A stretch of 64,000 nucleotides of DNA from Escherichia coli (GCF_003334335.1 NZ_QOWQ01000029.1), one strand, 5' to 3'. Positions 7,939-9,123 are shown, numbered from the stretch's first letter. Program-made: numbers and translations. Notes: generated by a model from the letters alone, not told the origin.

Positions 7939-9123
7939 TTAATTTGCGGCTTCCTGACGATGAAAACCTCGCCACCAGACCAGTAAGTTAACCAGGGCAA
8001 TCGTCGCGCCAGCCAGACAAACGCCAGCCCAACCGCCATGTTGCCAGGCTGAGGCTGAAATTAGCGAACCGGCGGCACCGCCAATAAAGTAGCTAGTCAT
8101 GTAACCTGCGGTCAGGCGATTGCGCGCATCAGGATGTATCCGATAAATTACCGTCTGGTTAGTGATATGCACGCCCTGCACGGTGAGATCCAGCACCAGG
8201 ATTCCGATAATCAACGCCAGTACGGAAGTGTGACCAAACCAGATCGCCAGCCATGAAAGTAATAGCAGCAGCAGACCGAAAGTTGTGGTGTGGTGCGATT
8301 TGCCCTTATCGGCAAAACCGCCCGCCGGACGAGCGCCCAACGCTCCGGCAGCTCCCGCAAGTCCAAACAGACCAATGACACCATCGCTGTAGTTAAAAGG
8401 TGGAGCGGCAAGCAAAAAGGCCATTGAGGTCCAGAGAATGCTGAAATTGGCAAAGGTCAGGCAGCCCAGCAACGCGCGGGTACGCAGAATTTTATCGCTG
8501 ATAAACATACTGAAAACGGAACCCAACAACTGTGGGTAGTTGAGGTGGGTTTCTGATTTCATTTGTGGCAGACCACGCCATAATGCCAGCGCCATCAGTG
8601 CCATTAACACCGAAGCAACCCAAAAGACGGTGCGCCAGCCGCCGAGATTCGCCAGCAATCCGGCAACTGTCCGTGCCAGCAAGATCCCCAACAGCAGACC
8701 GCTCATAATAGTGCCAACCACTTTGCCGCGTTTATCCGGTGAAGCCAGCGTCGCTGCCAGCGGAACCAGAATTTGTGCCACGACTGAGAATAAACCGGTT
8801 AATGCCGTACCGAGGATCATCATCGCCAGCGACTGACTGCTGGCGGTAATCAACATGCCGCATGCCGCCAGTAAGGTCATCGAGACAATCAGGCGGCGGC
8901 GTTCAAACATATCACCGAGGGGAACAAGAAACAGTAGACCTGCGGCATAGCCCAACTGCGCGGCGGTAACAATAAAGCCTGCCGAACTGGCGGAAAGGGA
9001 AAAGTTACGCGCGATGGTGTCGAGCAATGGCTGGGCGTAATAGTTACTGGCTACCGCCAGACCGGTGGCGATAGACATCAGCACGATCAGCGCCGGGCTA
9101 AGCTCATGATTAGGTTTAGTCAT
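7939..9123 (-). CDS. ygaY: MFS transporter YgaY, intact in this sequence
   Basis: Uninterrupted 394-aa ORF with 12 predicted TMS. Confidence 0.8.
   Translation of the reverse strand: MTKPNHELSPALIVLMSIATGLAVASNYYAQPLLDTIARNFSLSASSAGFIVTAAQLGYAAGLLFLVPLGDMFERRRLIVSMTLLAACGMLITASSQSLAMMILGTALTGLFSVVAQILVPLAATLASPDKRGKVVGTIMSGLLLGILLARTVAGLLANLGGWRTVFWVASVLMALMALALWRGLPQMKSETHLNYPQLLGSVFSMFISDKILRTRALLGCLTFANFSILWTSMAFLLAAPPFNYSDGVIGLFGLAGAAGALGARPAGGFADKGKSHHTTTFGLLLLLLSWLAIWFGHTSVLALIIGILVLDLTVQGVHITNQTVIYRIHPDARNRLTAGYMTSYFIGGAAGSLISASAWQHGGWAGVCLAGATIALVNLLVWWRGFHRQEAAN

Follow-up and report, generated by a model that had tools for sequence, protein, structure and literature searches.

The Escherichia coli DNA analysed here (64,000 nucleotides, referred to below as the window) carries an intact ygaY gene that we regard, at a probability of about 0.9, as the wild-type allele, the K-12 lesion in the same gene being the loss of one copy of a 7-bp repeat. 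The reading frame opens with an ATG at 9123 and runs for 394 codons with no internal stop (Table 1), and it is a genuine gene rather than a chance ORF. The allele corresponds to WP_000165680.1 ('MFS transporter'), annotated as an intact CDS in the natural isolate 720632, to which the window locus is 100% identical at the DNA level over 1499 bp; the ygaY locus is likewise 100% identical in isolate J6. Its neighbours mprA (emrR), ygaH, ygaZ, proX and proW share its strand, the minus strand, and the gene order is that of MG1655, proVWX–ygaY–ygaZH–mprA–emrAB, in reverse. Intact ygaY, a core-genome gene for a 12-transmembrane (TM) major-facilitator transporter of Escherichia, Citrobacter and Salmonella, was already known, and thousands of genomes have it annotated as 'MFS transporter'. 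The one small addition to existing knowledge is the relationship between a Gly88Cys substitution and the perfect repeat that is the probable precursor of the K-12 lesion.

Table 1 Features of the ygaY locus and of the ssrA site in the window.
Feature	Position	Strand	Basis
mprA/emrR	6132-6662	-	
ygaH	6753-7088	-	
ygaZ, AzlC-type L-valine exporter subunit, directly downstream of ygaY	7078..7815	-	ORF; MG1655 annotation
Sigma-70 promoter of ygaZH, TTAAGA-17-TATAAT, in the ygaY–ygaZ spacer	7842..7870	-	Consensus scan
ygaY CDS, intact, 394 aa + stop	7939..9123	-	ORF; Pfam; hydropathy; AlphaFold2
Perfect 7-bp tandem direct repeat, GCGGCAT/GCGGCAT, then G	8855..8868 (gene nt 256-269)	-	Pairwise alignments; repeat detection
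Codon 88, TGC (Cys), in TM3	8860..8862	-	Codon alignment of 8 alleles
REP-type repeat, Rfam naRNA4 (RF02564), in the proX–ygaY spacer	9228..9305	-	72.2 bits versus gathering score 59.5
proX, last gene of proVWX, directly upstream of ygaY	9315..10307	-	Maps to MG1655 proX 2807132-2808124; ORF
Unoccupied CP4-57 attachment site, 3' end of ssrA	39453..39476	.	Overlap of BLAST blocks 1-39476 and 39453-64000
tmRNA (ssrA)	39454-39816	-	

The 7-bp repeat and the K-12 lesion

In MG1655, ygaY (b2681, 2808316..2809493, 1178 bp) is annotated as a pseudogene, the DH5alpha copy carries the PGAP flag 'frameshifted', and the literature uses the K-12 gene as a neutral control or integration site, routinely so in metabolic engineering. 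All of this agrees with a preliminary description of the window, made from its sequence, according to which ygaY is annotated as a disrupted pseudogene in MG1655. Pairwise alignment of the two genes located the lesion as a single 7-bp deletion, with no substitutions in 1185 bp and one 7-bp gap in K-12; MG1655 ygaY is thus not an identical, intact copy. In the BLAST alignment, the gap falls at gene nt 256-262 (window 8862-8868, for which 8855-8861 is an equivalent placement), and the alignment of the full 64 kb agrees. At this point the window reads CTG GCG GCA TGC GGC ATG TTG and contains two copies of GCGGCAT versus one in K-12; because both copies are present, it does not carry the K-12-type pseudogene allele. 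The gene-to-gene alignment with MG1655 revealed no further lesion in the window allele.

The two alleles otherwise agree closely: K-12 ygaY (b2681; formerly ygaX/ygaY; P76628; TCDB 2.A.1.36.3) occupies the same locus between the same neighbours, and 1178 of 1178 aligned bases are identical, the difference being that the K-12 gene lacks one GCGGCAT copy and is truncated, whereas the window allele is full length. The K-12 frameshift lies inside TM3, after codon 87, and only TM1, TM2 and part of TM3 are encoded before the stop. Short direct repeats classically lose a copy by replication slippage, and slippage would be the simplest way for K-12 to have lost its second GCGGCAT; the 7-bp loss would then have shifted the frame in TM3 and ended translation after about 88 residues.

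The perfection of the repeat depends on a single base. Codon 88 is GGC (Gly) in all the other E. coli phylogroups sampled and in Citrobacter, and TGC (Cys) in the window; this G-to-T change at gene nt 262 (window 8862) turns an imperfect GCGGCAG/GCGGCAT into the perfect 7-bp repeat. The exact two-copy allele with Cys88 was found in 684 of the 5,426 complete E. coli genomes searched, none of them K-12; E. coli C, NCTC86 and ML35 are among them, as are many isolates of clinical, animal, food and water origin. Next in order of identity come sequences three mismatches away, and none of the genomes sampled combines the Cys88 haplotype with Gly88. Judged from these sequences, Gly88Cys is a lineage-specific substitution.

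The K-12 ygaY flanks are identical to the Cys88 haplotype, and it is on this identity that we consider the K-12 pseudogene to derive, probably directly, from the window allele, with the caveat that deletion of the first copy from a Gly88 allele would yield an identical K-12 sequence. In the order of events that we propose, Gly88Cys would have come first, making the repeat perfect, and the slippage deletion second; the substitution probably predisposed the K-12 ancestor to the frameshift. Given that position 88 is a variable hydrophobic column across the family (V/L/A/I, with Cys in 4 of 106 members), Gly88Cys itself was probably tolerated, and this variability speaks against treating it as a damaging change; some functional cost is nevertheless conceivable for a cysteine that replaces a glycine conserved within Escherichia and Citrobacter. 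Phase variation at the repeat was also considered and rejected, there being two copies only and a single loss in the roughly 1,037 genomes with this haplotype. The urinary isolate E. coli S115 (NZ_CP158441.1; positions 2296-3461 of the stretch analysed) has a second lesion here: its ygaY is annotated as 'frameshifted', and an independent 19-bp deletion (gene nt 252-270) overlaps the repeat region on a Gly88 background.

Source strain and distribution of alleles

The window aligns with MG1655 2817431-2731409 (reversed) in two blocks of 99.94% and 99.98% identity, about 99.95% overall. Between them, the blocks skip K-12 2755957-2777963, which is the 22-kb prophage CP4-57 (annotated at 2755941-2777971). 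The remaining differences are 16 SNPs in 64 kb, the 7-bp indel in ygaY and three single-base gaps that sit in the att overlap at the 3' end of ssrA. Because the tmRNA gene lies at this junction and ypjA ends 160 bp from it, the ssrA site is unoccupied, as the preliminary description had claimed. A 25-kb stretch over the ssrA junction is 100% identical to many natural isolates (from human, dog, goose and seawater), and natural relatives either have the same contiguous empty site or carry different islands of ~10-12 kb. The further suggestion that the DNA does not come from a standard K-12 strain is upheld by the missing CP4-57, the SNPs, the intact ygaY and this 25-kb identity. On sequence grounds, the source is a natural and very close relative of K-12 rather than a K-12 derivative, and it is phylogroup-A-like; such a strain would either never have acquired CP4-57 or have lost it, and would have kept both ygaY repeat copies. 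The 7-bp ygaY indel and the empty ssrA site cleanly separate true K-12 from its nearest natural relatives.

CP4-57 is capable of excision, and the identity of ~99.95% to MG1655, together with a fragmented ygaQ and split ypjB/ypjC common to both, would also fit a K-12 laboratory derivative from which the prophage has been excised and in which the ygaY frameshift has reverted or been repaired. We give this origin very little credence, because 16 SNPs across 64 kb are far above the level of a laboratory derivative, the haplotype is shared without a mismatch over 25 kb with many natural isolates and at ygaY with 720632 and J6, the exact two-copy allele recurs in the 684 non-K-12 genomes, and an exact 7-bp re-insertion is far less likely than a loss.

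Repair of other K-12 pseudogenes in the window was considered and rejected, as ygaQ and ypjB/ypjC are broken as in K-12; being common to both strains, these lesions predate the ygaY deletion. The fragments of ygaQ (ORFs of 263 and 228 aa) span about 28790-31042 on the minus strand, and ypjC (160 aa) and ypjB (263 aa) are separate at 32428-33801 on the plus strand; in some relatives the annotation is of a fused 'YpjCB family protein'. Of the 16 SNPs that separate the window from MG1655, four fall within 1.7 kb of the autotransporter gene ypjA (35165-36854) and two more fall in the ygaQ pseudogene, and SNP density is higher in the ypjA region than in the rest of the window.

To map the two alleles across the species, the set of 5,426 complete genomes was queried with 100 bp spanning the K-12 deletion junction and with 60 bp of the window allele. 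The junction query matched at >=99% identity in 353 of 5,418 genomes and in none at 95-99%, and the remaining 5,065 aligned to it only with a 7-bp gap; the window-allele query gave the mirror image, placing the same 353 genomes in the 80-90% band. Among these carriers, the best 60 and a further 8 sampled across the spread were K-12 derivatives without exception (68/68), and those listed include MG1655, C600, DH5alpha, DH1, J53, MC4100, HMS174 and NCM3722. Because the 353 carriers come close to the 347 genomes that have the wbbL::IS5 junction, an independent K-12 marker, and all listed carriers are K-12 derivatives, the deletion appears from these searches to be essentially coextensive with the K-12 laboratory lineage.

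Outside K-12, the intact 1185-bp CDS was present in ATCC 11775 (B2), O157 Xuzhou21, an ST131 strain, XDL, 042, HUSEC2011, B95.deltaA (B lineage), E. coli C and 720632, spanning the sampled phylogroups B2, D, E and B1 in addition to the B lineage and E. coli C. The alleles of other phylogroups (~99% identical) encode proteins that differ from that of the window by 1-4 residues, including Gly88. Nei–Gojobori dN/dS is 0.008-0.080 over all 21 pairs of seven alleles (dS up to 0.18) and 0.016-0.036 between the window allele and those of other phylogroups, values that indicate strong purifying selection on the intact gene. The length of 394 aa is kept in orthologues from E. fergusonii (97-98% identity), E. 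albertii (95-96%), and Citrobacter and Salmonella (93%), and Citrobacter has an intact ygaY in the same synteny, nrdEF-proVWX-ygaY-ygaZH-emrR-emrAB. This is indirect, sequence-level support for the suggestion in the preliminary description that the transporter may be functional, as is the retention of family residues described below. K-12 thus lacks a transporter on which strong purifying selection acts in the rest of the species.

Fold and family of the YgaY protein

The gene had been described as encoding all the TM segments of a 394-residue transporter, and the protein analyses agree with the uninterrupted ORF on this point. Pfam MFS_1 (PF07690) matches both six-helix halves (residues 17-273, E 8.5e-32; residues 218-385, E 3.2e-11). 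A Kyte–Doolittle scan found 11 strong TM segments; the twelfth, at about 337-360, is weaker and amphipathic. The segments form two groups of six around a central loop of 36 aa, and alternate loops are rich in K/R, which fits an N-in 6+6 topology. The AlphaFold2 model, built on a 106-sequence alignment, has 12 long helices (mean pLDDT 95.1, pTM 0.93) and superposes on SotB and MdfA with TM-scores of 0.84-0.86. [quoted passage not shown]

The TM2–TM3 loop contains motif A (G-x-x-x-D-[RK]-x-G-R-[RK]) in the variant form PLGDMFERRR, in which the inner Gly is replaced by Glu; Asp71 is present in 104 of 106 homologues, and R75 and R76 are conserved. A second copy of this motif, G-F-A-D272-K-G, lies in the TM8–TM9 loop. 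Across the 106 full-length homologues, D71, Q117, R151, D272, D312, Q316, N322, Q323 and R336 are near-invariant, and all nine are retained in the window protein.

YgaY aligns end to end with K-12 YnfM (BLASTP, 26% identity, E 6e-21), and TCDB lists it (P76628) as 2.A.1.36.3, within the YnfM family (PMC5417439). The alignment and the listing both place YgaY in the YnfM (acriflavin-sensitivity) family, 2.A.1.36, as a distant paralogue of the proton-coupled exporter YnfM (2.A.1.36.1) with a DHA1-like fold. The motif-A Asp and the TM5 Arg are common to the two proteins. Unlike YnfM, which has the divergent LysR neighbour ynfL and keeps the motif-B Arg in TM4, YgaY has no such neighbour and has Gly at that position.

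The best structural matches are the DHA1 drug or sugar:H+ antiporters SotB (6KKK/6KKL), MdfA (4ZOW/6EUQ) and NorA (8TTE), which share the 12-TM MFS fold (TM-score 0.79-0.90) at only 15-17% sequence identity. Models of the DHA1 family (TCDB 2.A.1.2) scored far below their cut-offs: TIGR00710 (Bcr/CflA) gave 52.0 bits versus 200.9, PRK03545 (SotB-type) 64 versus 401 and EmrD 39 versus 479. Motif C (consensus g-x-x-x-G-P-x-x-G-G), typical of antiporters, is not recognizable in TM5 of YgaY, which reads GTIMSGLLLGILLARTVAGLL and has no G-P core. A family name could not be taken from NCBIfam, in which the 27 weak MFS matches are all well short of a curated cut-off; the best of them is a partial match of the N-terminal half to the aromatic acid/H+ symport subfamily (78.5 bits, below cut-off). 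As a guide to substrate, a PDB sequence search was uninformative, with weak matches only (GlcP at 6e-9, EmrD and SotB). Near distant homologues (46-57% identity) there was no conserved partner or regulator, their neighbours being unrelated (AraC/FMN-binding, Rdx/MCP, OYE oxidoreductase and flagellar genes). PADLOC defence models gave no match.

In BL21(DE3), YnfM exports glutarate in a CCCP-sensitive manner, and deletion of ynfM alone abolished this export (PMC12622518); its efflux activity has also been linked to arabinose and to an anthocyanin (cyanidin-3-glucoside). The position of glaH-lhgD-gabDTP about 15 kb from ygaY had prompted the idea that YgaY, too, handles glutarate. We rejected glutarate as an unlikely substrate, because the ynfM deletion ends export in a lineage with intact ygaY; the intact YgaY of the B lineage does not replace YnfM in this role.

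Expression and function

A promoter and terminator scan of the locus returned counts at shuffle expectation, and its only meaningful site is the ygaZH promoter. An RpoD promoter with the same hexamers, constitutive in activity, has been mapped experimentally in the ygaY–ygaZ interval (PMC3946193). With a promoter of its own, ygaZH is therefore independent of ygaY transcription. For ygaY itself, the 191-bp proX–ygaY spacer yielded no convincing sigma-70 prediction, and reading the sequence by eye showed no obvious Shine–Dalgarno sequence before its ATG. The naRNA4/REP element in this spacer accounts for tens of thousands of extra places in BLAST searches with the ygaY locus. In K-12, the ygaY transcript is low, rises slightly after hyperosmotic shock and is up 4- to 11-fold in an stpA mutant (bioRxiv 10.1101/2023.07.10.548347), which suggests that it arises by read-through from proVWX. 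A six-codon mini-ORF (ATG AAC AAA AAT AAT GAC TAA; 9116-9136, minus strand), identical in K-12, begins 13 nt before the ygaY start codon, which it overlaps in a different frame; it, too, has no obvious Shine–Dalgarno sequence.

Transport direction cannot be read from the MFS fold. Because the distant paralogue YnfM and the structural neighbours SotB, MdfA and NorA are exporters, YgaY may be expressed and export a small organic metabolite in a process coupled to the proton-motive force, a proposal to which we give an even chance. The membrane-embedded residues Asp312 (TM10) and Arg151 (TM5) are candidates for proton coupling or substrate binding. Somewhat less probable is a wider proposal in which YgaY is a functional, conserved exporter, possibly co-expressed by proVWX read-through, its loss is a hidden defect of K-12 and the repeat is prone to slippage. 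If this were true, transporter inventories and efflux phenotypes based on K-12 would miss YgaY, and, in about 13% of E. coli genomes, the repeat created by Gly88Cys would leave ygaY exceptionally prone to loss.

An uptake role is the less likely direction, although it deserves to be weighed: YgaY would then be a proton symporter for, for example, an organic acid or an osmolyte-related compound. Consistent with this are the position of ygaY just downstream of proVWX, the rise of its transcript with proU read-through after osmotic shock in the stpA mutant, the missing antiporter motif C, a conserved membrane Arg151 that suits an anionic substrate, and the fact that the top partial NCBIfam match is to a symporter subfamily. 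That match, however, like every other in NCBIfam, is far below cut-off; YnfM, the sole characterized member of the family, exports, the closest structures are those of exporters, and the neighbours ygaZH and emrAB encode exporters too, though from their own promoters. It is more doubtful still that ygaY is a cryptic gene, effectively silent or impaired in this lineage, that was damaged first by Gly88Cys and then by the K-12 frameshift. Such a history would account for the confinement of Cys88 to one lineage when other Escherichia and Citrobacter have Gly, for the lack of a strong promoter or ribosome-binding site upstream, for a K-12 transcript that is low and resembles proU read-through, and for the tolerance by K-12 of a complete loss of the gene; we know of no phenotype of K-12 that follows from its lack of the YgaY protein. 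It sits poorly with the family alignment, in which all near-invariant residues are retained and column 88 is variable and hydrophobic, with Cys a natural occupant of TM3 there, as well as with the dN/dS of the window allele against other phylogroups. Moreover, roughly 1,037 genomes descend from the same haplotype, and among them loss of the frame at the repeat is confined to the K-12 clone.

The intact allele, whether from the window, E. coli C or B, is what should be used for de-orphanizing YgaY. In hosts other than K-12, such as BL21, E. coli C, W and ST10 isolates, the 'neutral' ygaY site is a live gene.

The wider YgaY family comprises 1,152 representative clusters at E <= 1e-30. One metagenomic protein of 596 aa (P0001) scored 1089 bits, above the self-match of the query, at 73% identity over the full query, and may represent a ygaY that is partly duplicated in tandem or a chimera created in assembly.
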